A DNA stretch of 64,000 nt from Myxococcota bacterium (GCA_965140415.1 OZ223209.1:5824001-5888000); one strand, 5' to 3'. Shown: positions 1,298 through 39,993, counted from the first letter of the stretch. The notes: generated from the letters alone by a model not told the origin. Numbers and translations are program-made.

Positions 1298-1492
1298 ATG
1301 TGTGAATCTGCGGCCTATCTGAAAAAAGACGAGAAAGAAGAACTGTTGATGCAGTCGGTAGCCGTGGTACTTCCGACCGGAAAAGACAGCTTCGTTTTGC
1401 GCGGACTACTGGGAGACAGCGTCGAAGTGAAGGGACGCGTCAACGAAATCAACCTGATGTCGAACAAGATTATTTTTGTGCCGACAGACTGA
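1298..1492 (+). CDS. cooT: CooT-family nickel-binding CODH accessory protein
   Basis: 64 aa starting MCESAAYL (Cys2 typical of CooT); GGGAGA RBS before ATG 1298; next to cooC. Confidence 0.75.
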   Translation: MCESAAYLKKDEKEELLMQSVAVVLPTGKDSFVLRGLLGDSVEVKGRVNEINLMSNKIIFVPTD

Positions 1493-2252
1493 GAACTTTC
1501 TCGGCGATATCCCGTAAGGAATCCGGCACATCGTCGAGGTTTTCGAAGGGCCGTACGCCCTTGCGGTCGGCCTCGATAAACTCTTCCAGTTCCGGTACGA
1601 AACCCAGAAAATCAAATTCAGGCAGGGTCTCTTTGAGCAGATCGATGTCTTCCTGTCCGCGCACGCGATTTCCCAAAACCAGGAATTGCTTGATGCCGAT
1701 CTCCTGACCGAGCTGGCGGATGCGATGCGCCGCCATACGGCTGCGCGCGCCGGGATTGACCACAACCAGCAGGGCATCCACCGCGTGCGTGGTTGCTCGT
1801 CCCAAATGCTCGACACCCGCTTCCATATCCATCAGCGCGATCTCGTCGCGATACAGCACCACGTTGGTCATCAGCGCCTTCAACATCGCACTTTCAGGGC
1901 ACACACAACCCATGCCGCCACCATGAACCGTTCCCATGACCAACAGCTTAACGCCATCGCGTTCCTTGCTGAAGCGGTCGGGGATATCGTCTACCTTGGG
2001 ATTGAGTGTAAAGAATCCACCCATCGTTCCCTTTTGCGCACCCGTGCGTTCGGCGATCAGATCCGACAGTTCGGCAATCGGCGTGATCGGATCCTCCTCC
2101 GGAATACCCAGCCCCGCCGCCAGATTCGTGACTGGGTCCGCATCGATGGCGATGACCCGCTGTCCACCTTGGGCCAATAGACGCGCCAGAATCGCGGTCA
2201 TGGTCGTTTTGCCAACCCCACCTTTTCCGCCAATGGCCAGTTTCAAACTCAC
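1470..2252 (-). CDS. cooC: CooC/AcsF Ni-insertion ATPase
   Basis: GKGGVGKTT P-loop, GCVCP CxC motif, DMEAGVEHLGR; GTG start at 2252 with GGAGGA RBS. Confidence 0.92.
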   Translation of the reverse strand: MSLKLAIGGKGGVGKTTMTAILARLLAQGGQRVIAIDADPVTNLAAGLGIPEEDPITPIAELSDLIAERTGAQKGTMGGFFTLNPKVDDIPDRFSKERDGVKLLVMGTVHGGGMGCVCPESAMLKALMTNVVLYRDEIALMDMEAGVEHLGRATTHAVDALLVVVNPGARSRMAAHRIRQLGQEIGIKQFLVLGNRVRGQEDIDLLKETLPEFDFLGFVPELEEFIEADRKGVRPFENLDDVPDSLRDIAEKVLSLSAQK

Positions 2253-2407
2253 GGTATCATCCTCCAGAGTAAATTCAGTAAAAGATCGTAAGGCGAATCC
2301 CGCTCGCATCCGACCGTTCCAGTGGATTAGAGCGGATGACTTCCGATTTTGTTCCCGGATTGATCCGACGAAGCCTCCCATGCCGCATTGCAAGCTGCAT
2401 AGATGAG

Positions 2408-2460
2408 AAAAAGGCGGCGGCGGTCGAACGCAAGAATATCACGTCCGTCACGCCGCCGCC
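2408..2460 (-). terminator. Intrinsic terminator downstream of acsE
   Basis: On the minus strand, stem GGCGGCGGCG...CGCCGCCGCC followed by TTTTTCT. Confidence 0.6.
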
Positions 2461-2523
2461 AATCGAAACAGAAAGGAAAACCACAGTTCGCGACGTATCG
2501 CGAAGTAGCTGGAATTCCTAAGC

Positions 2524-3411
2524 TTACAGCTCCAGCCAGGAATCTGAATAAAGCTGCTGGTTCGTCAGGATCTTCACGGTCTTGACGTAATCCTGCTGCT
2601 TCTTGTCCAGAGATCCCATATCGATGGATTCGCCGTTGTACGCCTTCATGACCAGCGCTTCCAGTTCGGGACGCTGCCCCTTGGCAATAGCGATAATCTC
2701 CTTGTCCAGACCATCCATGATCGCCGAAGTCATGCCGAGGTTTTTCAAGATGATAAGGTAGGTCTGGTTGATGATGTCGCGCAAATGCTCGGGCGAACCA
2801 TTGGACACATTGGACAAACCGCAGGTGCTGTTGCAACCGGGAGCGATCTCACCGATCATGGCGGTGAATTCGGTGCAACTGACAACCTGTTCCTGCTGGG
2901 AGGAAACCGGCACCACGACCGGGTCGAAGAACATGTCTTCAACGGCCAAACCGGCTTCCATGCCGTGATACAACAGTTCGGCGGCCAGTGCGCCACGCTC
3001 GTTGCTGTCACGCGGGATACCGTCGGTCGCATACATCAAAGCCACGAAACGGGCTTTGTATTCCGCTGCCAGCGGAAGCATCTTTTCCATGCGTTCCGGA
3101 ATGGCGGAAATCGAGTTGATCAGCGCCGGACCCGGTGTGGGATCGTAGGCTTTCAACGCAGCTTCCATCGCTTCCATGTTCATGGTGTCCAGACTCAAAG
3201 GAATGCTGACGGCGCTCTGCACCGTTTTGACAATCCATTCCATCAGTTCCGGGCCGCCCTTGCGTGCGAAACCGACGTTCAAGTCCAGAATGTCCGCGCC
3301 ATTGGCTTCCAGCGCTTTGGCCATCTTGATGATAGGCTCGGCGTTGCGTTCCTTCATCGCCGGTCCGAGTGATTTGGACATCACATTAATATTCTCGGCT
3401 ATGACGATCAT
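2524..3411 (-). CDS. acsE: Methyl-THF:corrinoid iron-sulfur protein methyltransferase
   Basis: Pterin-binding barrel motifs AENIN, LDLN, SLDT, INSI, GLSNVSNG; last gene of the acs cluster. Confidence 0.9.
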   Translation of the reverse strand: MIVIAENINVMSKSLGPAMKERNAEPIIKMAKALEANGADILDLNVGFARKGGPELMEWIVKTVQSAVSIPLSLDTMNMEAMEAALKAYDPTPGPALINSISAIPERMEKMLPLAAEYKARFVALMYATDGIPRDSNERGALAAELLYHGMEAGLAVEDMFFDPVVVPVSSQQEQVVSCTEFTAMIGEIAPGCNSTCGLSNVSNGSPEHLRDIINQTYLIILKNLGMTSAIMDGLDKEIIAIAKGQRPELEALVMKAYNGESIDMGSLDKKQQDYVKTVKILTNQQLYSDSWLEL

Positions 3412-3464: not shown

Positions 3465-4820
3465 TCAACTCGCTTTTGCGAAATTCTGCTTCAAGAACGC
3501 CGGAATGTGCGCACTTTCACGCGGTCCGATCATCACATTCCAGTCCGAGCCGACTTCCTCTTCCACATCGCCACTGATAATGGCGGCGTAACCGGGTAAA
3601 ACCAGAGTCTTGGATTTGACCTTGTCGGCGATGCCGCACTTCTTCACCAGCGCACCGACGGTATCGCCAACGAACTTGCCGGCTGCCCAGGCGGTGAGAA
3701 CGGAGAGACCGTCGGTATCAAGTACCAACAACCAGGTCGGCACACGGCTCGCCTCGATCTCGCCGGAAACCACGAAGTAGGTCAGCGAGAAGTTCGCCGT
3801 CACCAGCACCGGAGAATCGGCGCCGGGACCGTTGATCTCGTAGATGCCTTCGTCGGTCTTCATGGGTCGTTGCGGATCGGTGTAGATATTCAACCGCTGC
3901 AACAACAACGGGAACAGGCTCTCGCCCTGAATGTCGGAAAGTACGATCAATCCTGCATACTTGGAGACGAGGATTCCCGCATAGGCCGTTTCCAGCATCG
4001 GGTCGTCGGTCATCTCGCAGGGGAAGGTGATCGTTGGGAAACCCAGCGGACGGAAAGTCTCGTTGATCGCCAGACGCCGAATGGCGATGTGGTCGAACAA
4101 CTGCTTTTTCAGCGAGCGGCTACCCGGATCGAGCACCAGATCTTTCAGACCAAGGTCGATCAGTTTCTGTGACAGATCGCTGACCTCTTCCAGGCTTTCA
4201 CCACGCACCGCCAGCGGACAGGCGTTGTCTTTGGCCAGATCGGCCATCTCTTCGTAATTGTCCGCATCCGCCGCATACAACAACGGCTTGCGATCCTTAA
4301 CGGACTCGATGACCTCTCCGAGCACGTCTTCGTCGGCCATCAGGATCATTCCCATCTGGGTGCTGTCCGCAACCAGTTTCACCAGCGCGCCGTATTTTTT
4401 GGCGTCGTCGGTGTTGCATTTGAGCGCTACGGCGTTGGCTTTGAGCATCAAGCCGACACGCTCGTATTTAAGCGTATTCAACCGTTCGATTTTGGCTTTT
4501 ACCTGCTTGACGTCTTCATCGTCGGCAACCAGAACGCAAAATCCGGGTTGATTGAAGAAGGTTTTTTCGTGGCGGTACAGTACCGTTTCACCGCCCACTG
4601 CGAATTTTTCCTCGCCCTCACCGACTTCAACCGTCCTAATGGGCGGTGCCGATTCGGCGTCCAAGGTGGCTTTCGCTTCATCTGAAACGTGCGGACAGGC
4701 GGAAAGTTCCGCCTTGCCCGCCGCCAGATTCATCGCGAAGGCCAGACACGTGGGAACTCCGCAGTCCCCACAGTTGGTTTTGGGTAGGAGCTTAAAAATC
4801 TGGATTCCAGAAAGTCCCAT
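3465..4820 (-). CDS. acsC: Corrinoid iron-sulfur protein large subunit
   Basis: LPKTNCGDCGVPTCLAFA...CP 4Fe-4S domain; GGETVLYRHEK; YTDPQRP; SVLTAWAAGKF. Confidence 0.96.
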   Translation of the reverse strand: MGLSGIQIFKLLPKTNCGDCGVPTCLAFAMNLAAGKAELSACPHVSDEAKATLDAESAPPIRTVEVGEGEEKFAVGGETVLYRHEKTFFNQPGFCVLVADDEDVKQVKAKIERLNTLKYERVGLMLKANAVALKCNTDDAKKYGALVKLVADSTQMGMILMADEDVLGEVIESVKDRKPLLYAADADNYEEMADLAKDNACPLAVRGESLEEVSDLSQKLIDLGLKDLVLDPGSRSLKKQLFDHIAIRRLAINETFRPLGFPTITFPCEMTDDPMLETAYAGILVSKYAGLIVLSDIQGESLFPLLLQRLNIYTDPQRPMKTDEGIYEINGPGADSPVLVTANFSLTYFVVSGEIEASRVPTWLLVLDTDGLSVLTAWAAGKFVGDTVGALVKKCGIADKVKSKTLVLPGYAAIISGDVEEEVGSDWNVMIGPRESAHIPAFLKQNFAKAS

Positions 4821-4845: not shown

Positions 4846-7050
4846 TTACATCATCGGGTCCATCGACAATGCCGGATGACCAACTTTTTCCATGTGGGCA
4901 TACACTTCTTCTTCGGTCGTTCCGACGGTTTCGTCGGCGATCTTGTCGAGAAGTCCATTGATACCCAACTCACCAGACACCTTAGCAAACCGCTCTGCAA
5001 TTTCCTCTTTGAGCCGTTTGGGCATCCACGCGATGCGCTGGATACCGCCTTCGGCGCTGATGAATTTCTTGCTGGTAATGTAGAGCTTACTGTGACCGAC
5101 GAAGCCCGGCGTAATCGCACCGCCGCCGACCGAACCGGCCAGGGTGGTGAATTTCATGCCGGAAGGCGTCATGCCGCGATAGTCGCGGTCGACGATCATT
5201 ACACCGTTGCAGGTCGGCATGAATGCCGCAATGCATTCGAAGCAACCACAGCTGGTCATGGGCTGATCCATGATGCTGTAGGCGTTGTACTGACCCACGT
5301 TTCCTCGGCTGGCTTTCTGCACGAACTCATTGACACCCGACCATTGGCCCTTCTGTTCGTCGATGGTGTCGCCTTTTTCGATCGGTTGGTTGGGACCGGT
5401 CGGATTGATTTCGTTACTGGCCTTGCAGTCGAGCCAGCTATACGCACCGCACAGACCGGCGCGTTCCGGGGTCACCACGCAAACATGTGTGGGAGCGAAG
5501 GACTGGCACAGGGTGCAGGAGTAGAAGGTGTCGATGGCTTCATCGGTCATACCTTCCACGCGCTCGTCGCGAATCTTGTAAGCGGCGCGGGCCTTGGCCA
5601 CCATTTCGGTCACCTTGGCTTCATCGGTGAAGATGGTAACCTGCACCTTGTCCAGAATGTTGCCGAAGTCCTGGTGGAACTTGGCGTGCAGAATACGTCC
5701 GATATCCGCCAGCGCAAAGCCCTTCTCGATCGCACCCTTGGCGATACGTACCCAGGCGATATCGCGTTGGCCGATGTGCATCGCACCCTGCGCGAAGTTG
5801 ATGAGATGGTGAATCTGACGTTCGAGAATCGGTTCGAAGTCTTCCTGCATGGCGCGACCGGCGACTTCGACGTAAATCGCCAGTGGCGTTTTGCTGCCCT
5901 CTCCCAGTTCCTTCAGATCGGGACCGACGACTTCGACGTTGCCGTCCTGGACTTCGTCCATCTCGCGCATCTGAACCAGCTCGACCGCTTGTGTGCGACC
6001 GCCACCGGCTTCGTAGTAGATGTCCTCGCCGCGTACGCGCTCGCCTTCGAAGGCGGGACCGTAAGAGACCGGGACCGGAACTTTGGTGATGTTGACTTTT
6101 AAGCCGCGAACTTCAATCGCCTTGCCAACAATATCCTCATAAGGAATGTTGCTGACGACGTGCTCGTAAGTGCAAACGCCGGTGGGCAGAATCTCGGGAA
6201 TCGGGGTATCCGCGATAACCGGGAAACCGTAGTTGACGATGCCCAGACCGTTGGCATACCACTCGTCGGTCACGGTACCCATTGTCAACGCAAAAGCGAA
6301 CACGCGGTCTTTGTTGTAAATCAGGATACGGCGGAAGTCGCCAGGCTCGATACCACCGAAACTCATAGCGGCGCGTGTGGCGAAACCGACGGCGAAAACG
6401 GCGGCGCTGGTATCGGGACCGAAGGAAACCAGGCGGGTTCCCCAGCCGACCTGCACACCCGCTTCGACCAGCTGATCGCTGAAGGTTTTGCCTTCATGCG
6501 AACCAGCCATAAAGACATACAGGTTTTTCTCTTGCAATTCCAACGCGATCTTGGCCGCGATCTCCGAGTTGGGAGCCGCACCCAGAATGGCCGCAAAGCC
6601 AGGAGCGGTACCATCGACGAACTCGACACCACGCTTACGGAGGATGATGTCGTTGGCCGCGCCCAACCAGATGTTGTCGGCGGTGACGTCTTCGTCCGTA
6701 AGGTAGAAGTTCGGTTCGTTCAAGTAGCGAACACCCTCGCTCAGTTCCTCGGCGAAGAGGGTCGCCATACCGGCGTCCAGGGCCGGGCCGAGATAGGGCA
6801 GATGATATTTTTCATGAACCATGGGCGGAAGCAGCGACTTGCAGCGGTCCAGGACCGGCTTCATGTCTTCCAGCTTCTCCACCTTATGGCCAAGAATTCC
6901 GTAAATGATCGGTAGATAATAACCGGTGTTGGTAAAATTCACCTCGGCGTTGCCGCCGTGGGTGTCCATGGCCTCTTTCCATTGTTGTTCGGCCCTGGCG
7001 ACGATTTTATGCGCACCGCGAATACCGGCGGAAGCGATAATTTTTGACAT
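4846..7050 (-). CDS. acsB: Acetyl-CoA synthase
   Basis: A-cluster ligands CTLCQSFAPTHVC...GLCG and TSCGCFE; 734 aa with the bacterial-type N-terminal domain. Confidence 0.97.
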   Translation of the reverse strand: MSKIIASAGIRGAHKIVARAEQQWKEAMDTHGGNAEVNFTNTGYYLPIIYGILGHKVEKLEDMKPVLDRCKSLLPPMVHEKYHLPYLGPALDAGMATLFAEELSEGVRYLNEPNFYLTDEDVTADNIWLGAANDIILRKRGVEFVDGTAPGFAAILGAAPNSEIAAKIALELQEKNLYVFMAGSHEGKTFSDQLVEAGVQVGWGTRLVSFGPDTSAAVFAVGFATRAAMSFGGIEPGDFRRILIYNKDRVFAFALTMGTVTDEWYANGLGIVNYGFPVIADTPIPEILPTGVCTYEHVVSNIPYEDIVGKAIEVRGLKVNITKVPVPVSYGPAFEGERVRGEDIYYEAGGGRTQAVELVQMREMDEVQDGNVEVVGPDLKELGEGSKTPLAIYVEVAGRAMQEDFEPILERQIHHLINFAQGAMHIGQRDIAWVRIAKGAIEKGFALADIGRILHAKFHQDFGNILDKVQVTIFTDEAKVTEMVAKARAAYKIRDERVEGMTDEAIDTFYSCTLCQSFAPTHVCVVTPERAGLCGAYSWLDCKASNEINPTGPNQPIEKGDTIDEQKGQWSGVNEFVQKASRGNVGQYNAYSIMDQPMTSCGCFECIAAFMPTCNGVMIVDRDYRGMTPSGMKFTTLAGSVGGGAITPGFVGHSKLYITSKKFISAEGGIQRIAWMPKRLKEEIAERFAKVSGELGINGLLDKIADETVGTTEEEVYAHMEKVGHPALSMDPMM

Positions 7051-7068: not shown

Positions 7069-9246
7069 TTAATCCAAGGCCTGGCGGTCGGCCATATCGG
7101 CCAGCTTGCGTTCGCGCTTCTTGTCGATGCCGAGCGCTTTACGCTTCTTGTCGATATGGGCGATCATCTTGTGAGCCGCCGAGATGGGGTCTTCGTCGTA
7201 GTCCCACATTCCACCAGTGATACTCTCGTACTTGTTGAAGAGCAGATCGGTGAACTCGGGAGAACCCAACGTCGGGAAGGTGGTGGAGAACATGGTATAG
7301 ACACCACTGGCCACGAAGTAATGGCCGATGGAGATGGCTTTTTCGCTCATCCACTCGGGGGCCGCACCGGCTGCGGGAAGATCGCTGATGTCGTCGCCCA
7401 GTCCACCTTCTTTGACGACTGTGGAAGCCGCGATCAGAATGCGGGAGTTGTCCACGCAAGAACCCATGTGCAGGACCGGCGGAATACCGACCGTCTCGCA
7501 GACTTCGGCCAGACCCGGACCGGCGTGCTGTGCCGCCGCTTCGGGAACCAGCAGACCTTCTTTGGCCAGCGCCACCGCGCCGCAACCGGTCATCAGGACG
7601 ATAACATCGTTCTTGACCAGTTCCTTGACCATTTGAATGTGCCAGCTATCGTGCGGCGTCTTCGGATTGGTGCAACCGACCACACCGGCGATACCGCGAA
7701 TCTTTCCGTTGATGATGTTGTCGTTCAACGGACGGTAGGAGGCGCGGAAGAGGCCACCCAGCAGGTAGTTGATGGTTTCATGCGAGAAACCGGCCACCAG
7801 CTTGTGGGTTTCTTCCGGAATATGCACCACCTCAGGGCGATTCTCGAAATTATCGATGGCTTGCTTGACCACTTCGCGCGCCGTGTTGATGGCATCGTGC
7901 TCGTGGAATTCGATATGCTCCGCTCCCGGCATCTTGGCGCGCGGGCTGGTGGTAATGATCTTGGTATGGTAGTGCCCGGCCACCGAAGGCAGCGCACACA
8001 TAATGCACTGAACATCGACGACCATTGCTTCGACTGCGCCGGTCACGATGGCCAGTTCCTGTTGCAGGAAGTCACCCGCAACGTTTACACCATGGCGCAT
8101 CAGAATTTCATTGGCCGTGCAGCAAATGCCGCCCAGGTTAATGCCCTTGGCGCCCTTGCTCTCCGCATATTTCAGCAGTTCCGGATCTTGCGACGCCGCA
8201 ACGATCTGCTCTGAAAGCAGTGGCTCATGACCATGGATGATAATGTTGACCTGGTCTTTCTTCAGAATTCCCAGATTGGCTTCGCCCATAATCGGGACCG
8301 GTGTGCCGAACATAATGTCCTGCAACTCCGTACCGATCATCGAGCCACCCCAACCGTCACCGATGGCGGCTCGGGAACCCTGGATCATCAGGTTTTCCAT
8401 TTCCTGATCCACACCCATGTGGGTACGGTGCATAATTTCCACGATTTCGCGATCGATACCGCGTGGTGCCATACCCAGATCGCGCCACAATTGCTGGCGC
8501 TTCAAGGGAGCTTTGCGCAGGAATTTGAGTTCACCCTCTTGTTGTCCGAATTCGGCAAGAGCCGTTTCACCAACTTCAATCGCAATCTCTTCTTTGGAGC
8601 GTCCTTCGATTTCGATATCGAAATCCAACGCGACCTGGAGAAGTTTCTGCTCATCTTTGATCTCATAACCGGGGGCTTCACCCTTGGCAGCCAGGATAAG
8701 GGTTTCTGCTACGGCACGACCATGGTCCGAGTGTGCTGCTGCACCGCCCGCAATCATGCGCACGAAGTTACGTGCAGCGATGGTACTTGCGGTGGCGCCG
8801 CAAACACCCACGCTCTCCGGCTCACCCGGCTTGGTCTTCTTGATGCGGCAGGGGCCCATGACGCAGATCTTGCAGCAGGTGCCGTCGATACCCCAGTTGC
8901 ATTGCGGCTGTTGTGCGGCCAGACGATCCCAGACAAGCTGTACGCCGTCATCTTCGGCCACCTGAATGGTCTTCAATGCGGTGGGGTCCACACTCTTGGG
9001 TTGGTCGCCAACCTTTTTAGCCTTGGCTCTGGTCGGCGTATCGAACTGCTTGGCGGCAACAGGAGCGGCAGCAGCAGCCTTGGGAGCAGGTTTTGCGGCG
9101 ACAGCCGGAGCGGCTCCACCCACCTGCGCACGCAACTGCGCTAGCGTTTGTTGCTGTTCGCTAATCAATTTTTTCAGCTCGGCAAGTTCCGATCCCTTAC
9201 CTGCCGATTTTCCTTTATCTGAACCGACGATAATTTCGACTTTCAT
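7069..9246 (-). CDS. cooS: Ni-Fe CO dehydrogenase catalytic subunit (AcsA) with ~80-aa N-terminal extension
   Basis: PQC..G.CCKICVMGPC, AAAHSDH, HGHEP, GICCT, VDVQC, GVVGC, TGC, HMGSCVD, SEKA. Confidence 0.97.
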   Translation of the reverse strand: MKVEIIVGSDKGKSAGKGSELAELKKLISEQQQTLAQLRAQVGGAAPAVAAKPAPKAAAAAPVAAKQFDTPTRAKAKKVGDQPKSVDPTALKTIQVAEDDGVQLVWDRLAAQQPQCNWGIDGTCCKICVMGPCRIKKTKPGEPESVGVCGATASTIAARNFVRMIAGGAAAHSDHGRAVAETLILAAKGEAPGYEIKDEQKLLQVALDFDIEIEGRSKEEIAIEVGETALAEFGQQEGELKFLRKAPLKRQQLWRDLGMAPRGIDREIVEIMHRTHMGVDQEMENLMIQGSRAAIGDGWGGSMIGTELQDIMFGTPVPIMGEANLGILKKDQVNIIIHGHEPLLSEQIVAASQDPELLKYAESKGAKGINLGGICCTANEILMRHGVNVAGDFLQQELAIVTGAVEAMVVDVQCIMCALPSVAGHYHTKIITTSPRAKMPGAEHIEFHEHDAINTAREVVKQAIDNFENRPEVVHIPEETHKLVAGFSHETINYLLGGLFRASYRPLNDNIINGKIRGIAGVVGCTNPKTPHDSWHIQMVKELVKNDVIVLMTGCGAVALAKEGLLVPEAAAQHAGPGLAEVCETVGIPPVLHMGSCVDNSRILIAASTVVKEGGLGDDISDLPAAGAAPEWMSEKAISIGHYFVASGVYTMFSTTFPTLGSPEFTDLLFNKYESITGGMWDYDEDPISAAHKMIAHIDKKRKALGIDKKRERKLADMADRQALD

Positions 9247-10772
9247 GATTGTCTCCTTTGAATGAGGTCTCGCAGCATGTTGATTTCTTCTTGTTGTGTT
9301 TTTATCAGCTCGCGAAGGGCGGCCAGTTCGGATTCCGAGGCCGTCTCTTCCTCATCGGCCCCAAGCGTGATGACGATTCGCACGGGACCGGACTCTCCGT
9401 CCGTATTGATGGTTTTGGAAACTGCAACAGGTTCGCTGGCAACTTCCACTGCCGGCACTTCCACTTTGGCAACAGGAGCCGGTGTAGGTGCAGGCGCTGG
9501 TGCAGCAGCAGCGGCAGCAGCAGCTTTTGCTTCCGCATCCGCCTTGGCCTTGGCTTCTGCATCCGCTTTGGCTTTTGCATCGGCAGCGGCTTTGGCCTTG
9601 GCTTCTGCATCCGCTTTGGCTTTTGCATCGGCAGCGGCTTTGGCCTTGGCAGCAGCATCGGCTTTTGCTTTCGCTTCGGCAGCGGCTTTGGCCTTGGCAT
9701 CCGCTTCCGCCTTGGCTTTCGCTTCCGCCGCAGCTTTTGCTTTGCCGTCGTCTGCCGGTTTGGCGGCTTTCTTCGGCTTGTCTTTCTTGACCTTGGCCTT
9801 CTTCGGCTTCGCCTCGACCTTCGGCGCACGCTCTTCGAGCAGATCCGCCATCAACTGGCGCACCAGTTCAACGGTCTTGGGATGCCGCAGCACCAGCACG
9901 TCGCCTCCAGCCACCAGGCAAGATGCGGCGGTGATGGTTTCCATCAATACACCACGCTTGGAAGTATCGCCCAGTTCAGGCATTTCCTTGCTGGAGATTT
10001 TTGCTTCTTTCGTTTTCCAGACTTCACGTCCGAGATTGCAGTACAGCGGGTATTGCAGTTTCTCATCTTCCTGCACCAGAGCCGCCAAACGAGCGCGCTC
10101 CATAACCGAATAGCTGTACTCCATACCGTAACCCAAACCTCCGACGGTCGGGTCCACGATGATATTGGTATCCGGGACACCCAGGTTGCCCAGCAGAATG
10201 TTCAACTGCTTGGCAAGGTTGATGTCGATCGGCGAAGACGCGACCGCGATATGGCCGTAGGCCAGCGTGCCTGCGCCCAATTGCTTGTAATCGTCTTCTT
10301 CTACCGGACCAACCAACAGCTTGGTATCTGTAACCGCTTCGCATACAGCGCGCAGTACCTCGATGTCCTTGGCGTGACTGGCGGTACCCCAGACGCAGAC
10401 GGGAACGTCTACGGCTTCGAGTACGCTCTTGACTACTTTCACAGCATGATCCGCGCCCAGATCCTTCCCGTTGGGATCGGTGCCGATCAACTCGAGATGA
10501 ATCATGTCCGCGCCGTATTTGTCTTGAGCCATTTTGGCCCACTTGGCAGGATCCTTAAGCGCGTCGCCCCAGACGGCTACCAGTTCGGATGCCAGATCTT
10601 CCGGTTCGATGTCGTTAACCGCAATGGCGATTTTCGGAGTGTTGGGCATTTCGCCTTCGAAAGTATAGAACGGCATGGTGCTTTCACCGCCGATCACGAA
10701 ACCGCGCTCTCCCGGGATCTGGATTTGCTTGATTTTACCAGGATACTTTACTTGGGGGATATCTACGGCCAT
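9243..10772 (-). CDS. acsD: Corrinoid iron-sulfur protein small subunit with ~195-aa C-terminal extension
   Basis: GGESTMPFY, SPIDINLAKQLN, GLGYGMEYSYSVMER, LRHP; ATGA overlap with cooS. Confidence 0.95.
   Translation of the reverse strand: MAVDIPQVKYPGKIKQIQIPGERGFVIGGESTMPFYTFEGEMPNTPKIAIAVNDIEPEDLASELVAVWGDALKDPAKWAKMAQDKYGADMIHLELIGTDPNGKDLGADHAVKVVKSVLEAVDVPVCVWGTASHAKDIEVLRAVCEAVTDTKLLVGPVEEDDYKQLGAGTLAYGHIAVASSPIDINLAKQLNILLGNLGVPDTNIIVDPTVGGLGYGMEYSYSVMERARLAALVQEDEKLQYPLYCNLGREVWKTKEAKISSKEMPELGDTSKRGVLMETITAASCLVAGGDVLVLRHPKTVELVRQLMADLLEERAPKVEAKPKKAKVKKDKPKKAAKPADDGKAKAAAEAKAKAEADAKAKAAAEAKAKADAAAKAKAAADAKAKADAEAKAKAAADAKAKADAEAKAKADAEAKAAAAAAAAPAPAPTPAPVAKVEVPAVEVASEPVAVSKTINTDGESGPVRIVITLGADEEETASESELAALRELIKTQQEEINMLRDLIQRRQS
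9528..9743 (-). repeat. 9 x 24-bp coding repeat (KAKAxAxA) in the AcsD tail
   Basis: Nine 8-aa units; 9553-9600 and 9601-9648 are an exact 48-bp duplication. Confidence 0.9.
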
Positions 10773-10829
10773 TCCTCTCTCCTTTTAACGAGTGAACAAA
10801 TTCCGAATCCTCTGTCTCGGCAGAGAAGA

Positions 10830-11042
10830 TCAGGCCGGTGTTTTGCGCTTCTCGCTTCCGAATCCCTCCTCTACATAATAGTATCGGAGACCGGTCTTGA
10901 TGTACTTGAGCATCTCTTCGCGATCACGAGTCTTGGCGCGCCAACGATCGGCATCCTCCGGAATGCCTTCTTCGTAGGTGGCGTCTAAGACTTCCACCTC
11001 CTCGCCATCGAACTTCTTTTTCTTCACCTTGGTTTCCGTCAT
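10830..11042 (-). CDS. Small hypothetical protein heading the acs operon
   Basis: 70 aa, strong GAGGAG RBS, co-oriented and 57 bp upstream of acsD. Confidence 0.75.
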   Translation of the reverse strand: MTETKVKKKKFDGEEVEVLDATYEEGIPEDADRWRAKTRDREEMLKYIKTGLRYYYVEEGFGSEKRKTPA

Positions 11043-11907
11043 TGCAATCTCTCCTCTTTCGGTTGGGTGTCAAATGGTTGTTGAATTCTCAGTCCGTGCT
11101 CGAATAACAAAATGAAAAAAAATCTTGACCTATACGCACTCTTGGAGTAAATGAGCGAACCTCTACGCTAAGCTCATTGCCTCCTCATATTTGATAACCC
11201 TAGAACCTTCATCCGTCATAACGTGCTCGCGAAATATACTTTTGCCACAAATATCGGGAACTTGAGTACTGACTTCCGCAAAAAGATGTTCGGGGTTTTT
11301 CCACTTATTATAACTCAAAACCAAGTGTACCAATAAGTTGTTATCATACGTCCAGCAATCAGGCAAGGCTTTTTGTCGGTGATCCGTATTAATATTTTCC
11401 CATAAAACATTAATAAATGCCTCTTTTCCCTTTCCCCATAAACCGGGTCGAGTCTCTCGTCTGATCGATCTGGTAAGGTACTTCCCTTTTCATTGCCAAT
11501 GAACTTATGCACTCCATGACCCCGCATCGCCAACTTCTTCGACGTGCTGCGACTTGATCTTAGGCTCCGCTGCTAGCTGGGGCATTTGACAAAACCATGC
11601 TGCACAGCAGAATATTCCACCTAATTTTGCGGATTTCACGAATTCGCTTGACGCTTACCTGTCCTTGACGCAAAATAGTCCAGTCGCAAGAAAGGATCGA
11701 AAACACGCCGGTTTCAACAGGAATGGGAACGAACCGTAAACCGCCTGCCGTTTGAAGATCCGACCCTGCGCACACAGCACCCGTTCGTTGTAGAGCAAGC
11801 ACGCTGTCTCCGATAAGGATACAGCTTCACAGTTTCTGGAGAGACGTACCCAACGTTTTTTTCTTCACGGCTCCCAATATGAGCCACAACCCAGAAGGAG
11901 TGATTGC

Positions 11908-27451: not shown

Positions 27452-27909
27452 GGTTGCCCTTCTTTCTCGCTTGTTTCTTTCGGCGAAAGATCCTGCCGTT
27501 TTTGATTGATGATGCTGGGTCCAAGATCGGCGATATGGCTTGTCATGTCCGAAACGTGCGCCGCAAACTTTGCCCCTTCACCTGCGCTCAGGTTGTACAT
27601 GCGCACGCGCTCCGCTCCGATTCCCGCACTCTGCAACAACGCATCGGTTCGTTTGACGCGCTCTTTTGCTCGCAGGTTGCCTTTGACAAAGTGGCAGTCG
27701 CCTTCCAGACAACCGACGACCATCACGCCATCCGCGCCACTTTCAAATGCGCGCAACATCATCACCTCATCCACTCGCCCCGTACAGGGCACCATCACAA
27801 TCGAAGTGCTCTCCGGATATTGACGTCGTTCCGAACCTGCCAGGTCCGCAGCGGTATACGCTCAATGACGGCAGGCGAAGATCAGAATGTTCGGTCTGAA
27901 CTCGGTCAT
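27448..27909 (-). CDS. mvhD: MvhD [2Fe-2S] subunit, selenoprotein (UGA at codon 16)
   Basis: MTEFRPNILIFACRH-U-AYTAADLAG...VPCTGRV...GCLEGDCHF; TGA at 27862-27864 in a conserved Cys position; ATGA overlaps at both ends. Confidence 0.9.
27832..27848 (-). promoter_or_regulatory. Candidate bacterial SECIS hairpin
   Basis: CGGACC-UGGCA-GGUUCG stem-loop with a G-containing apical loop, starting 13 nt after the in-frame UGA. Confidence 0.65.
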
Positions 27910-30900
27910 GCCCTCTCCTGTGCTTGAGGTTGAATGGATTGTTGGAACACCCGGTAGGCGTCTATTTTGGTGATCAGGTTGCGATGATCGTATACCCCCA
28001 TGTGAATCGTTCCCGCCGGACATTCCGCGACACAAATGCCGCAACCCTGACAAAGCGCCGGATTGATTTCCGCGCTGTGCTCGGCGTTGATAAACGGCAC
28101 ACCATAAGGACAGGCACGTACGCAGGTCAAACACACCGCGCAATGCTCCGGGTCTACCTGACTGACAATTCCCGAAAGACGAAGGCTCTGCTTGCTTAGC
28201 ACCGTGGCCGCTCTCGCCACCGCCGCATTCGCCTGGGAAATCGTTTCCTGCATGTTTTTCGGGCCGTGAGCGACTCCCGCCAGATACAGACCATCGCTGG
28301 CGAAATCCACCGGACGCAGCTTGGCATGCGCCTCGAAGAAAAAGCCGTGATCGTTTCGCGGCACACGCAGCATTGTGGCCAGTTCTTCCGTTTGTGCAGC
28401 TTCGATGCCAGTCGCCAGTACCAATAACGACGGACGCAGTTCGACCCGACGACGGATGGATGGATCGAGCAGTTCAATGAAGATCTTTTCTTCTTCAAAA
28501 CGCACCTGCGGCGCATTCTCGTCCGGTTCGTAACGGACAAAGTTCACGCCCAGTTGTCGTGCCTGCCGATATTTCAATTCGCTCATGCCGTAGCTGCGGA
28601 TGTCGCGGTAAAGCACGTCGATGCGCGTTTTCGGGAACCGTGTTTTGATAGCGAGGGCGTTTTTTATCGACTGATTGCAGCAGATGCGGGAGCAGTAGGG
28701 TAAATGCTGCGCATCGCGGCTACCTGCACACAATAACATCACGATCCAGGGATGCTGAAATCCCAGTTCCGGTTCCTGCTCCAGGCGCTGTTCCAAGTCG
28801 CTCTGTGTCAGCACACCCGGATGTGTACCCAGTCCATATAGCTCGGGCCTGGATTCCACTCCGCCGGTGGCGACGATGGCCGCGCCGTGCTTCAGGCTGC
28901 GCGTCACACCGGCGGGCGTCATGATCGTAGTTTCGAAATTGCCGACGAAGCCGCCATGCTCCACCACTTCCGAAGAGGCCAGAACTTGGATATTCGGTTG
29001 CTCACGCACCTCATTCACGAGTCGGGCCAGAACCGGAGCGACAGGAACGCCTTCTTCGGCCTGCTTGATCTTTTTCATTTGGCCGCCCAGCGTCGCTTCG
29101 CGTTCGATAAGATAGACGCCGAAGCCCTGCCTGGCAGCCTGCAAAGATGCCGTCATACCGGCCAAACCGCCGCCGATGACCAGCAGATGCGGATTGACTT
29201 CGAATTCATGCTCTTTTAAGGCAACGGCCTGCGCGACGTTGGATACCGCCATATGGACCAGCCGTCTGGCCTTTTCCGTCGCCCGTTCGGGTTGACCTTG
29301 ATGCACCCAACTGCAATGATCGCGAATATTGGCCATGTCGAACATGTAACGGTTCAACCCGGCCTGTCGCAGGGTTTCCTGAAACACCGGTTCATGGGTT
29401 CGCGGTGAACAGGCGGCAACCACCACATGTGTCAACTGCTGCTCATTGATAATGGTCCGCATGCGCTCCTGGGTATCCTGCGAGCAGGTATACAAAGGAT
29501 GCTCGGCATACACGACACCCGGCAAGCCCTTTGCGTAATCGACCACGTTTTCAACATCCACCACCGAGGCAATATTGATGCCGCAGTGACAGACAAAGAC
29601 GCCGATTCGTTTTTCTTCCCCGTTTTCGTTCCGTTCAGGCGGGAAGCTTTCGCGTTCGACCAGGCTGCCGCGCGCATCTGCAAGATTGGCTGCCGCCGCT
29701 GCTGCGGCGCCGCTGGCCTCACTGACGGTCTCCGGGATATCCTTGGGTCCGCTGAAAACACCCGAAACGAACACACCGGGCCGGTTGGTAGCTAACGGCT
29801 GGAAGGGATCTGTGCGGGCAAAGCCGAAGCGATCCAAGTCCACCCCCACCCGCTGTGCCAGCAGGCGAGTTTTATCCGAAATTTCCACACCGACCGAGAG
29901 CACCACCAGATCGAAGTTTTCCCGTACCTGTCCGCCGTCTTCGCCGATGTAGCGCAACTCCAGGTCGTGACTGTTGGGGTCTTCGTATACACGGCTGACC
30001 ATGGCGCGTACATAGCGTACGCCGTGATGTTCCTGCGCCCGGATGGCGTAGTCGTCGAAGTTTTTACCGAACGCACGCAGATCGATGAAAAAGATGGTGG
30101 GTTCGATATTGGCATCGTGATCGCGCGCGATTACCGCTTCCTTGGTGGCGTACATGCAGCAGACGGAAGAGCAATAGTCGCGCTCACAGGTCGTGTCGCG
30201 ACTGCCTACGCATTGTATCCAGGCGATTTTACGCGGGTGTTTGCCATCGGACGGTCGCGCCACCGTGCCCGATGTCGGACCCGAAGCGGAAAGCAGGCGT
30301 TCGAACTCGATGCTGGTCATCACGTTCTGATACACACCGTAGCCAAATTCTCCACGCCGAGCGGCGTTGAAGGTGTCGTAGCCGGGAGAAAGAATCACCG
30401 AGCCGACTTCGAAGGTTTGCAGCGACTCGCTGTGGTCGTAATGAATGGCCTTGGCGTCGCACAGGGATTGACAGGTACCGCAAGCACCGACATTCAACCG
30501 GACACAGCTTTGCTCGTCGATTACCGGTACGCGCGGAACGGCCTGTGGGTATTGGATGTAAATGGGTTTTCGCGCAGAGAGGCGTTCGTTGAATTGGCTG
30601 CGCAAGGGATGCGCTTCTTTGTTGCTTAATTGTTCGATTTTCAGAAAATCTACCGGGCATACCGACACGCAGGCCCCGCAGGCGCGACATTTTTCCCGAT
30701 CGACTTCGATTCCCTCCGCCGTGAGCAACAGTGCGCCGGTATTCATGACTTTGTCGCACATTACCTGGCATAAACCGCAGCGAAGACAATCCGCTCCTCG
30801 TTCGTCTTGCTTCGTCTCTCGTAATTTTTCGGAGCGTGCCAGTATAGCCGCGCCCATGCTACGCTGTATTTCCGGAACGTCGTCAACGCGGATAGCGTCG

Positions 30901-31565
30901 AATTTAGCAGGACAGGCCACGTAACAGGCTCCGCAGCGGATACAGGCCTGCTCGTCGATTTTCGCGACCTGCTTCTTTTCCCAGTCGATCGCTCCTACCG
31001 GGCAGCGCCTGGCGCAGGTACCGCACATGCGGCAAGCTTCTTCGTCTACCGAGAAACGCCAGCCGTAATCCGCAATGCCTTTGCGTGCACCGAAAAACGG
31101 TAATACGACTTTGTCCTTTTTAGGCTTCGAGGCTGCCTTGTTGTCATCCATTTCGGGGAAATAGGGACGATGCGTTACCGGACAGACGATTTCACATTGT
31201 CCGCAACCGGTGCAGGCATTCAGATCGACATAGCGTGGGCGTTTGCGCACCGTCACGGAAAAATTTCCCACTTCGCCTTCTACACTGACTAGTTCGCTAT
31301 AGGTGATCAGTTCGATGTTGCGATGCCGTCCCAATTCAACCAACTTGGGAGAGATAATGCACATCGAACAGTCGTTGGTTGGAAAGGTCTTGTCCAGTTG
31401 CGCCATACGCCCGCCGACCGAAGGTGACTGTTCCAGCAGGTAGACCTTGAAATCCGCATTGGCCAGATCCAAGGCGCTTTGCATACCGCTGATACCGCCG
31501 CCGACAACCAATACTGCTCCAATTGGGCGGAGGACCTCTTGTTTTGTCTGTTGCCTGGCGTCCAT
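27906..31565 (-). CDS. hdrA: Large HdrA-like flavoprotein (two FAD modules, extra ferredoxin insert)
   Basis: GGGISG and GGGLAG FAD sites, LDKTFPTNDCSMC, CVGSRD...CSSVCC, CAGSRD...CSRICC, eight ferredoxin-type motifs. Confidence 0.93.
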   Translation of the reverse strand: MDARQQTKQEVLRPIGAVLVVGGGISGMQSALDLANADFKVYLLEQSPSVGGRMAQLDKTFPTNDCSMCIISPKLVELGRHRNIELITYSELVSVEGEVGNFSVTVRKRPRYVDLNACTGCGQCEIVCPVTHRPYFPEMDDNKAASKPKKDKVVLPFFGARKGIADYGWRFSVDEEACRMCGTCARRCPVGAIDWEKKQVAKIDEQACIRCGACYVACPAKFDAIRVDDVPEIQRSMGAAILARSEKLRETKQDERGADCLRCGLCQVMCDKVMNTGALLLTAEGIEVDREKCRACGACVSVCPVDFLKIEQLSNKEAHPLRSQFNERLSARKPIYIQYPQAVPRVPVIDEQSCVRLNVGACGTCQSLCDAKAIHYDHSESLQTFEVGSVILSPGYDTFNAARRGEFGYGVYQNVMTSIEFERLLSASGPTSGTVARPSDGKHPRKIAWIQCVGSRDTTCERDYCSSVCCMYATKEAVIARDHDANIEPTIFFIDLRAFGKNFDDYAIRAQEHHGVRYVRAMVSRVYEDPNSHDLELRYIGEDGGQVRENFDLVVLSVGVEISDKTRLLAQRVGVDLDRFGFARTDPFQPLATNRPGVFVSGVFSGPKDIPETVSEASGAAAAAAANLADARGSLVERESFPPERNENGEEKRIGVFVCHCGINIASVVDVENVVDYAKGLPGVVYAEHPLYTCSQDTQERMRTIINEQQLTHVVVAACSPRTHEPVFQETLRQAGLNRYMFDMANIRDHCSWVHQGQPERATEKARRLVHMAVSNVAQAVALKEHEFEVNPHLLVIGGGLAGMTASLQAARQGFGVYLIEREATLGGQMKKIKQAEEGVPVAPVLARLVNEVREQPNIQVLASSEVVEHGGFVGNFETTIMTPAGVTRSLKHGAAIVATGGVESRPELYGLGTHPGVLTQSDLEQRLEQEPELGFQHPWIVMLLCAGSRDAQHLPYCSRICCNQSIKNALAIKTRFPKTRIDVLYRDIRSYGMSELKYRQARQLGVNFVRYEPDENAPQVRFEEEKIFIELLDPSIRRRVELRPSLLVLATGIEAAQTEELATMLRVPRNDHGFFFEAHAKLRPVDFASDGLYLAGVAHGPKNMQETISQANAAVARAATVLSKQSLRLSGIVSQVDPEHCAVCLTCVRACPYGVPFINAEHSAEINPALCQGCGICVAECPAGTIHMGVYDHRNLITKIDAYRVFQQSIQPQAQERA

Positions 31566-39571: not shown

Positions 39572-39993
39572 GTTCACCAATGAAACGGTCGTTTTAATGG
39601 CGATCGTTTTTTCCTTTTTATGTCTTCTCTCAATTAAACTCGAAACATGTTGTCCCAAGATTCTAGTTTTGATTGGTTTTAACTTATTATTAATTATGTA
39701 AAATTCTATAAAAAAACATGGAAATTTGCCGTATTATTACTGTAGAATATCTTTGTATGAAAGAGCTTCGCTGGAACCAGCGGCGAGAATTGTTTTTCCT
39801 GATGAAACAGGGATTCGGGACCATGCGGTTCCGGGTAGTCAAATAGTATGTTCTGAGGTATACTATTTGAATTATTTTACGAATGTCTTGCACTGGGGTA
39901 TAATCCGCCTTTGCGGGACTCTTCTTGAGTGGGGCTGGTTCAACTGAGGGAGCTAGAGTTAGAAACTTAGCGGTTGCCAGGATATACAGGTCA

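Follow-up and report, generated by a model that had tools for sequence, protein, structure and literature searches.

Gene Organization of the acs Locus

The window analysed here is a 64,000-nt stretch of a Myxococcota bacterium genome (GCA_965140415.1 OZ223209.1:5824001-5888000), in which the acs genes all lie on the (-) strand and, according to a Pfam scan of the ORFs, show the usual operon content acsD-cooS-acsB-acsC-acsE-cooC. The acsD ORF (9243-10772, 509 aa) encodes the CoFeSP small subunit and is followed by the cooS ORF (7069-9246, 725 aa) for the Ni-CODH CooS/AcsA, by acsB for acetyl-CoA synthase (4846-7050, 734 aa; PF19436, PF03598, PF18537), acsC for the CoFeSP large subunit (3465-4820, 451 aa; PF03599, PF04060), and the genes of an acsE-like methyltransferase (2524-3411, 295 aa; PF00809) and a cooC-like maturation ATPase (1470-2393, 307 aa; PF01656 and related P-loop families). 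In the 1.1-kb gap that precedes acsD, no Rfam family was matched at E<=0.1.

The AcsD catalytic core, residues 1-312 (9837-10772), is a member of PF03599 (E 2.3e-38; 132.4 bits against a cut-off of 24.8, residues 22-302) and aligns with the solved structures 9fzy_E (E 7.2e-76, query residues 6-312), 4djd_D (1.2e-75) and 2h9a_B (1.7e-73). The CODH core of CooS, residues 84-725 plus the stop codon (7069-8997), belongs to PF03063 (Prismane; E 3.6e-174; 580.6 bits against a cut-off of 27, residues 123-687), is matched by the solved CODHs 6ytt_B (E 4.4e-199) and 1mjg_A (5.1e-155), and carries the N-terminal Cys cluster motif C116...C124-C125..C128....C133. In comparison with canonical bacterial CoFeSP and CODH/ACS, the cores are clear homologues, and the arms and modules described below are what the solved structures lack.

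Beyond its core, AcsD continues into an arm, residues 313-463 (9384-9836), which consists of a Lys/Pro-rich segment, a repeat of Ala/Lys/Asp/Glu composition and a Pro/Ala/Val segment that contains an extra short strand (451-455), and ends in a C-terminal module, residues 464-509 (9246-9383), with the strand VRIVITLG, an acidic linker and a three-heptad helix. Conversely, CooS begins with an N-terminal module, residues 1-42 (9121-9246), with the strand MKVEIIVG, a Lys/Gly linker and a helix, and passes through an Ala/Pro/Lys-rich arm, residues 43-83 (8998-9120), into the core. These module coordinates, as well as the AcsD and CooS peptides quoted in an earlier note on this DNA, agree exactly with the translations. 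The arms of about 150 aa in AcsD and about 40 aa in CooS, which the same note had described, are confirmed by the solved homologues, the cores of which align up to residue 312 of AcsD and from residues 80-91 of CooS. Solved AcsD and CODH indeed lack the extensions: the AcsD homologues (309-323 aa) cover query residues 1-312 only, and none of the solved structures (PDB 9fzy, 4djd, 2h9a, 1mjg, 6ytt) has arms or modules.

In the AF2 models, pLDDT falls below 50 at residues 315-344 and 422-450 of the AcsD arm and at residues 46-83 of CooS, and CooS residues 43-83 are predicted to form a disordered Ala/Pro arm. For AcsD residues 347-421 (9510-9734) a single long helix of 75 residues is predicted (pLDDT 59-77 by 10-residue blocks, from a 5-row alignment), which would be about 11 nm long if helical. 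The helix is encoded by a 48-nt tandem repeat (TRF period 48, 4.6 copies, 86% matches, 9523-9744), and its composition is Ala/Lys/Asp/Glu rather than the classic Glu/Arg/Lys of ER/K-type single alpha-helix spacers.

The acsD/cooS Junction

The two genes meet in an ATGA overlap (9243-9246), made up of the acsD stop codon TGA (9243-9245) and the cooS start codon ATG (9244-9246), and the Shine-Dalgarno (SD) sequence AAAGGAG of cooS (9253-9259) lies within the final acsD codons, such that the last AcsD residues, RRQS, are encoded by the SD region. The translational coupling claimed earlier is borne out by this overlap, which can be read directly. Four other genomes carry both modules (see below); three of them have GTGA at this place, and the fourth (G004) has a short gap, with the acsD stop upstream of the SD and an AcsD that lacks the RRxS tail. 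A (G/A)AGGAG motif is located 7-9 nt ahead of the cooS start in all five genomes. Between residue 1 and residue 130, cooS contains no ATG. An assembly or frameshift artefact at the junction, which would have undermined the earlier proposal, is ruled out by the arrangement shared among the five genomes and by a separately assembled contig of run X1, possibly derived from the sample used for the assembly, which shows 0 differences and 0 gaps over 8800-9472. Contigs of X2 and X3 cover the stretch 8800-9800 in part, and the contig check covers the sequence outside the repeat region 9473-9800. A frameshift is present within the arm of acsD in one carrier (G009).

Homology of the AcsD and CooS Modules

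The AcsD tail and the CooS head are homologous and align with one gap, as had been suggested. Pairwise BLASTP of the two modules gave E 2e-7 with 15 of 39 residues identical and 28 positive, and hhalign of the five AcsD tails against the five CooS heads gave a probability of 97.0% (E 1.1e-10, 41 columns). When all 82,531 six-frame ORFs of the genome (40 aa or longer) were searched, the sole non-self match that each module found at E<=50 was its counterpart (E 0.76 and 2.1). AF2 places a strand at AcsD residues 464-468 and helices at residues 480-508 of AcsD and 19-41 of CooS, in models of low confidence (mean pLDDT 58 and 51, respectively, 5-row alignments). In an alignment of ten modules, the AcsD and CooS copies of five genomes (A1), nearly all have hydrophobic residues at helix positions 3, 6, 10, 17, 20 and 24, with Ala at position 3 in the CooS modules of G006 and G009 as the exception; leucine is invariant at positions 6 and 20, and position 13 is Gln in nine modules and Asn in one. 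Invariant within the AcsD modules are L486, Q493, Q494 and L500, and within the CooS modules L24 and L38. With hydrophobic residues at heptad positions a and d of a predicted helix, the modules have the generic features of a coiled coil, albeit a short one of about 3 heptads. Curated Pfam families are not matched by the modules (COMP PF11598, 16.6 bits against 23.9; SlyX PF04102, 14 against 30), and the scan at E<=10 returned no further family, PKS/NRPS docking families included.

The two modules of a genome also vary together. The linker has 8 residues in both modules of G006 and of G009 and 11-13 in those of G000 and G001, “G” is replaced by “LP” in the two modules of G004, and SELA occurs in both modules of G000, as SSDV does in both of G001. 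By contrast, the charge complementarity proposed for the linkers, acidic in AcsD and basic in CooS, holds on one side: in the window the linkers carry charges of -6 and +1, and in each of the five genomes the linker of AcsD is acidic (-2 to -7), whereas that of CooS is near neutral (-1 to +1).

Distribution Among Genomes and Databases

With an HMM built from A1, only two module copies are found in the 5.98-Mb genome (E 4.1e-17 and 1.5e-16; next match E 3.7). Exactly two copies (E 6e-20 to 4e-15), always at the acsD/cooS junction, are present in five of the ten genomes of the order, which is equivalent to the whole class; the remaining genomes lack both, and a profile search identified a single copy in none of the ten, in line with the co-occurrence across acs operons anticipated earlier. 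Among 401 genomes of the phylum there was no strong match outside the five carriers, and the weak matches in 11 genomes (E 1e-4 to 9e-3) were dismissed as covering helix columns only, in unrelated coiled-coil repeat proteins. A word search of 5.8 billion proteins returned eight matches, six of which have an AcsD or CooS Pfam domain, while the other two are fragments without a Pfam domain, one an AcsD tail and one a CooS head; no other protein family was among them. The search of 1.84 billion representatives yielded one full-length match only, a CooS fragment, and the other 14 of 15 matches again comprised helix columns only, in unrelated coiled-coil repeat proteins. A word search with AcsD 450-509 found one protein only (98% identical), ESM Atlas gave no usable match to AcsD residues 445-509, and in a metagenome scan with a smaller alignment (A4) none of the 592 matched stretches encoded a relative. 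In a second long-arm AcsD lineage, matched ends are unsupported, the BLASTP comparison of the tail with the CooS head being weak and inconsistent (E 0.009 to 24). As far as searched, the module is confined to one class of uncultured bacteria. No earlier description of the module pair was found in the literature searched; such extensions might be listed in the supplement of PMC6344411, whose tables give CODH structural groups and fusions, or in the extended data of PMC13370988.

Gain, Loss and Selection

One genome of the class, G002, lacks both modules and both arms. On the AcsD core tree it is nested within the carriers (fork support 95/92), and the identity of its CooS core to that of the window (75%) is close to that of the carriers (76-79%; G008, 67%). 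G002 thus appears to have lost both modules together, a single event on a tree that is midpoint-rooted and has some unresolved forks. All carriers may descend from a single gain, and with only one joint loss the co-occurrence statistics comprise very few independent events.

Both modules are under purifying selection, with pN/pS values between G006 and G009 of 0.19 for the AcsD module and 0.17 for the CooS module, compared with 0.09 for the CODH core. Residues common to both modules share an identical codon at 4 of 15, 9 of 19, 4 of 12, 2 of 13 and 6 of 14 sites in the five genomes. The codons at shared residues are mostly different, indicating that the likeness is kept by selection and not by recent gene conversion between the modules, of which synonymous sites show none.

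A Putative Docking Junction Between CoFeSP and CODH/ACS

One open question of the Wood-Ljungdahl pathway concerns the way in which the methyl-carrying corrinoid protein locates acetyl-CoA synthase. In model bacteria CoFeSP and CODH/ACS are isolated separately and associate weakly; in methanogens both are part of one 2-MDa complex, the glue of which was first reported in 2026. The sequence features described above gently tip the balance towards a docking junction that would tether CoFeSP to CODH/ACS, in which the strand-linker-helix at the end of AcsD would pair with its homologue at the N-terminus of CooS. Given the dimeric state of CODH, the likely assembly would consist of two CooS and two AcsD helices, capped by the paired strands. 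The corrinoid protein AcsCD would thereby be tied non-covalently to CODH/ACS via both arms, which could raise the local concentration of CoFeSP and still let it swing from the methyltransferase to the A-cluster of ACS and back. The module pair may have been born from a tandem duplication of about 140 bp over the gene junction. Owing to the ATGA overlap and the SD inside acsD, the completed tail of AcsD and the emerging head of CooS would meet in place and time, and we propose that co-located synthesis by translational coupling would kinetically favour the hetero-pair.

Alternatively, the modules could oligomerise separately, with the CooS helices strengthening or extending the CODH dimer and the AcsD helices oligomerising CoFeSP, without direct contact between AcsD and CooS. 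In A1, the two module types have similar helices at the e/g and core positions, where positions g2/e7 and g16/e21 are acid/base in each, and since such salt bridges form in homo- and hetero-pairs alike, hetero-specificity is not evident in the helices; judged by the e/g positions, homo-pairs would be as favourable as hetero-pairs. Moreover, CODH is dimeric already, and archaeal CdhD is described in a preprint as self-assembling by a coiled coil (PMC13370988). Separate oligomerisation nevertheless leaves unexplained why the modules are constantly present together and were jointly lost in G002, and why linker length and genome-specific motifs are common to both, and mixing would be expected of two homologous amphipathic helices that are synthesised next to each other. 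We therefore consider it unlikely. A 1:1 complex prediction from the alignments of AcsD tails and CooS heads scored 0.17/0.18 against a scoring mark of 0.32 and is counted neither for nor against hetero-pairing.

A second alternative is that both modules serve as like handles for a third, non-homologous partner, such as a scaffold, a membrane complex or a compartment. Homologous modules would suit one receptor, but the genome contains no third module carrier, the module is restricted to the acsD/cooS junction, and a hydrophobic core of the signal-peptide type is lacking in the CooS head. Genes for the BMC shell (PF00936) and encapsulin (PF04454) gave 0 matches in G000, which is 93.7% complete and in which positive controls were detected, and a role as microcompartment or encapsulin cargo peptide was rejected on this ground. 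A common receptor is thus improbable. That the likeness is a neutral relic of a tandem duplication over the junction, which left functionless look-alike tails in a region that is duplication-prone given its recently expanded 48-nt repeat in the arm, is very hard to reconcile with pN/pS values of 0.17-0.19, with a heptad pattern and L/Q/L positions kept in ten of ten modules and two families despite saturated synonymous sites, and with the joint loss of both modules.

Returning to docking between AcsD and CooS, the tether may go as far as a standing CODH/ACS-CoFeSP supercomplex, held by a duplication-born, ATGA-coupled hetero coiled-coil-plus-strand junction with an arm of more than 10 nm, in which methyl transfer would be freed from diffusion and which would be a counterpart of ACDS reached by a different route; this fuller picture is plausible, if not quite probable. 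A bacterial ACDS-like supercomplex can reasonably be inferred, but no more than that, because the charge complementarity of the linkers breaks down on the side of CooS and the helices lack evident hetero-specificity. The tether idea is directly testable despite the organisms being uncultured, since the modules are short and easily expressed. If it is correct, leashing of CoFeSP to CODH/ACS evolved more than once, and the pair would represent a compact tag of about 45 aa per partner that could be moved to the enzymes of model or industrial acetogens for testing the effect of proximity on acetyl-CoA synthesis.

Relation to Known Systems

In one study, bacterial CoFeSP was purified separately from CODH/ACS, and crowding of the micrographs at concentrations suited to complex formation precluded single-particle analysis (PMC12289521). 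In Methanosarcina acetivorans, according to the 2026 preprint, ACDS is held together by an N-terminal coiled coil of CdhD, the helix of which forms a homo-hexameric or homo-octameric antiparallel bundle, and flexible terminal regions are proposed to join CODH, ACS and CoFeSP (PMC13370988). Both systems share a short leucine-zipper helix in a disordered extension of the corrinoid small subunit, as well as the proposed use of flexible termini (PMC13370988). However, the CdhD helix is N-terminal and the preprint describes no matching CODH module, whereas the helix found here lies at the C-terminus behind a strand and is matched by a homologous module on CODH; the preprint also states that the N-terminal region of archaeal CdhD is not conserved in bacterial AcsD and that oligomerisation of bacterial CoFeSP has not been reported (PMC13370988). 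AcsD of the window aligns with solved bacterial AcsD from residues 1-6 onward, and has no CdhD-type N-terminal extension.

The arms are reminiscent of flexible linkers and charged helices known from the swinging arms of 2-oxo-acid dehydrogenase E2 and from ER/K single alpha-helix spacers, respectively. They resemble the former in their Ala/Pro-rich flexible linkers, but come without a lipoyl or peripheral-subunit-binding domain, and the latter in a predicted charged Ala/Lys/Asp/Glu helix as a possible spacer, the single-helix character of which is predicted by a low-confidence AF2 model. The layout of the junction is like that of PKS/NRPS docking domains, short matched elements at the C-terminus and N-terminus of polypeptides from adjacent genes. 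There, a dimeric enzyme bears the N-terminal partner in the form of a coiled coil, and a beta-strand is present as well in some classes. To our knowledge, PKS/NRPS docking partners are not homologues of each other, whereas here, in a different enzyme system, the two modules are homologous; if they dock as proposed, they would provide a clean example of a hetero-docking pair that arose from module duplication over a stop/start overlap.

Organization of the acsD-cooS Junction

In the window, acsD (9243-10772, minus strand, 509 aa) is followed by cooS/acsA (7069-9246, minus strand, 725 aa), the acsD stop overlapping the cooS start as ATGA; acsB, acsC, an acsE-like methyltransferase gene and cooC lie downstream on the same strand, and fhs and folD diverge from the operon. 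The RRxS with which AcsD ends simply translates the cooS Shine-Dalgarno (SD) sequence; in G004, one of five genomes carrying the modules described here (carriers), AcsD has no RRxS and the acsD stop lies before the SD. The ~1.1 kb between acsD and the divergent fhs (10773-11907) contain no convincing ORF, and no Rfam family matched there at E ≤ 0.1.

Solved AcsD proteins (309-323 aa) cover only residues 1-312 of the query, and the alignment with solved CODHs begins at CooS residue 80-91, so that the AcsD extension amounts to 197 residues and the extra part of CooS to about 80. Each consists of a terminal module, AcsD residues 464-509 (9246-9383) or CooS residues 1-42 (9121-9246), and an arm leading to the core (AcsD 313-463, CooS 43-83). 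In the low-confidence AF2 model of AcsD (mean pLDDT 58, five-row alignment), residues 315-344 and 422-450 are disordered, 347-421 form a single continuous helix (pLDDT 59-77), 451-455 and 464-468 form short strands, and 480-508 a terminal helix. At the DNA level, a tandem repeat with a 48-nt unit (9523-9744; 4.6 copies, 86% matches) encodes the predicted long helix. In the AF2 model of CooS 1-130 (mean pLDDT 51), residues 19-41 are helical and 46-83 disordered. In an alignment of ten modules (five AcsD tails and five CooS heads; A1), the helix comprises three heptads with hydrophobic a/d positions, two invariant leucines and a conserved Gln, once Asn, at the central d position, preceded by an amphipathic strand.

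The acsD gene of G009 (L004 about 1459-3008) is frameshifted within the Ala/Lys repeat, with the C-terminal module in another frame and a 94-aa product (P0004) called at this site, reflecting either a repeat assembly error or a real split. AcsD is not the sole bearer of long charged spacers in G000, the genome of the window: a 576-aa ORF (L024 1147-2877; G000:C1, near 1.889 Mb) has a ~280-residue AKEEAERK-type repeat before its C-terminal region, likely another long charged helix.

Homology and Distribution of the Modules

The peptides quoted in the earlier note are exact, its coordinates correspond to AcsD 464-509 and CooS 1-42, and its alignment of both ends with one gap was reproduced by pairwise BLASTP (E 2e-7, 15/39 identical, one gap). 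Profile-profile comparison of five orthologues per end gave a probability of 97.0% (E 1.1e-10, 41 columns), and among 82,531 six-frame ORFs of G000 each module matches just itself and the other. An HMM of the ten modules recovers the two copies in this genome at E 4e-17 and 1.5e-16, the next best match having an E of 3.7; a third carrier of the module is absent. Because of these results the likeness of the two modules is considered real. The module belongs to no Pfam family; COMP (16.6 bits, cut-off 23.9) and SlyX (14 bits, cut-off 30) both stay below threshold. G000 has a second Prismane-family gene (G000:C1:2019346-2020950, L081; 545-aa frame, E 5.6e-172), which lacks the module and may encode either a stand-alone CODH or a hybrid-cluster protein.

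The order, here equal to the whole class, comprises 10 library genomes. Exactly two module-HMM matches (E 6e-20 to 4e-15), all at the acsD/cooS junction, occur in five of them (G000, G001, G004, G006, G009) and a lone copy in none. In G002 and G008, acsD and cooS are adjacent, AcsD is short and CooS unextended; no AcsD core match was obtained with the query used in G003, G005 and G007 (86, 79 and 95% complete). Strong matches in a 401-genome sample of the phylum are confined to the same five genomes; single weak matches in 11 further genomes (E 1e-4 to 9e-3) cover helix columns only, in unrelated coiled-coil proteins, and were rejected. When 5.8 billion proteins were searched by word index, eight came up, six with an AcsD or CooS Pfam domain and two domainless fragments (one AcsD tail, one CooS head), and no other protein family bearing the module. 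Among 1.84 billion cluster representatives, a full HMMER run yielded 15 proteins at E ≤ 0.001, of which only a single CooS fragment spans the module from end to end; with one protein retained per 50% cluster in this library, module-less representatives may conceal carriers. Both modules are present at locus L052. The other 27 loci inspected have no module-HMM match: AcsD is 313-316 aa long in 12, has a long Ala/Lys/Glu arm with a different tail in a further 12 complete proteins (471-521 aa) and one partial, and is truncated or broken in two.

In a tree built from 32 AcsD cores by maximum likelihood (rooted at midpoint, some forks unresolved; L052, identical to an included row, and the partial L075, L076 and L079 left out), G012 and then G008 fall outside the carriers, and G002 is nested among the carriers in a group with G004 and G006/G009 (95/92 support at the fork). 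With this midpoint root, possession of both modules requires two changes. The CooS core of G002 is 75% identical to that of the window, close to the carriers' 76-79% and higher than the 67% of G008, and its operon was therefore not replaced, so that the AcsD arm and module and the CooS module and arm were lost together. The module-less CooS of G002 (L005, minus strand) starts MANEVEVKKKKVISVDP, perhaps what is left of the N-terminal strand, fused directly to the core.

Selection and Co-variation

The comparison of G006 with G009, at a pS of about 0.46, yields pN/pS values of 0.19 (AcsD module), 0.17 (CooS module) and 0.09 (CODH core, 200 codons). In each of the five carriers, the positions at which the two modules agree are mostly encoded by different codons (same codon in 4/15, 9/19, 4/12, 2/13 and 6/14 cases), and DNA alignments contain no long identical run between the modules. 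We take the likeness to be kept up by selection rather than by recent conversion. Both modules of G006 and G009 have an 8-residue linker, compared with 11-13 residues in G000 and G001; in G004, LP replaces G after the strand in both; SELA is common to both modules of G000 and SSDV to both of G001. The G004 modules resemble each other (14/41 identical) more than they do their respective orthologues (9-13 of 44-49 and 10-11 of 40-44). Such shared features fit co-evolving surfaces that have to match in register, but they come from about four independent lineages and may also reflect old conversion events.

A Proposed Docking Junction

The module pair is real, selected, clade-restricted, homologous and terminal, and sits on two partner enzymes. 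Its most likely reading, which we hold with moderate confidence, is a docking junction in which the AcsD tail would bind the CooS head, so that CoFeSP would be tethered to CODH/ACS via two arms. Homo-pairing of the helices instead is equally plausible, because both kinds of module, AcsD and CooS, have acid/base residues at helix positions e and g (alignment A1). The proposed contrast of an acidic and a basic linker holds for AcsD (-2 to -7); the CooS linkers are not basic (-1 to +1). The frameshift in the acsD of G009 is a further point against the docking reading. The modules are the last-translated part of acsD and the first-translated part of cooS on one coupled message, so that co-translational pairing could kinetically favor the hetero-complex. 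CODH is a dimer, which places two CooS heads close together, and a 2+2 bundle with paired strands would be our best guess of the stoichiometry. A 75-residue helix measures ~11 nm and the flexible residues of both arms add about 115; judged from the AF2 model and the dimensions of CODH/ACS, this length would let the corrinoid protein reach an ACS subunit located terminally in the complex.

We found no prior description of the module pair in the literature. The portions available of a preprint on the archaeal ACDS describe the CdhD N-terminal coiled-coil region as not conserved in bacterial AcsD and state that there are no reports of bacterial CoFeSP forming oligomers (PMC13370988). The archaeal coiled coil is N-terminal, whereas the module of the window is C-terminal on AcsD and has a twin on CODH. 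According to the accessible part of another study, bacterial CoFeSP was purified separately from CODH/ACS, and micrographs at complex-forming concentrations were too crowded for single-particle analysis (PMC12289521). CODH extensions have been catalogued as His-rich or Cys motifs, such a module being unmentioned in the available text, its supplementary table aside (PMC6344411).

A Second Long-Arm Clade and Other ORFs

A separate clade of long-arm AcsD (core-tree support 100/98) comprises L061-L063, L065, L068-L071, L073, L074, L077, L078 and L079, with AcsD starting at about 4001 in each locus (L079 aside), from MAGs of which most carry the label Thermodesulfobacteriota or delta proteobacterium. 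These proteins (471-521 aa) carry an Ala/Lys/Glu arm of their own and end in a different, conserved tail (...KEMKVAE.QLSPVDKLLAQINRVNKR.), so that long AcsD arms arose at least twice. This tail shows no significant likeness to the CooS head, and CooS in this clade has a short Lys-rich head. Elsewhere in the window, large ORFs encode 1219 aa (27906-31565), 1807 aa (39925-45348) and 2349 aa (48969-56018).
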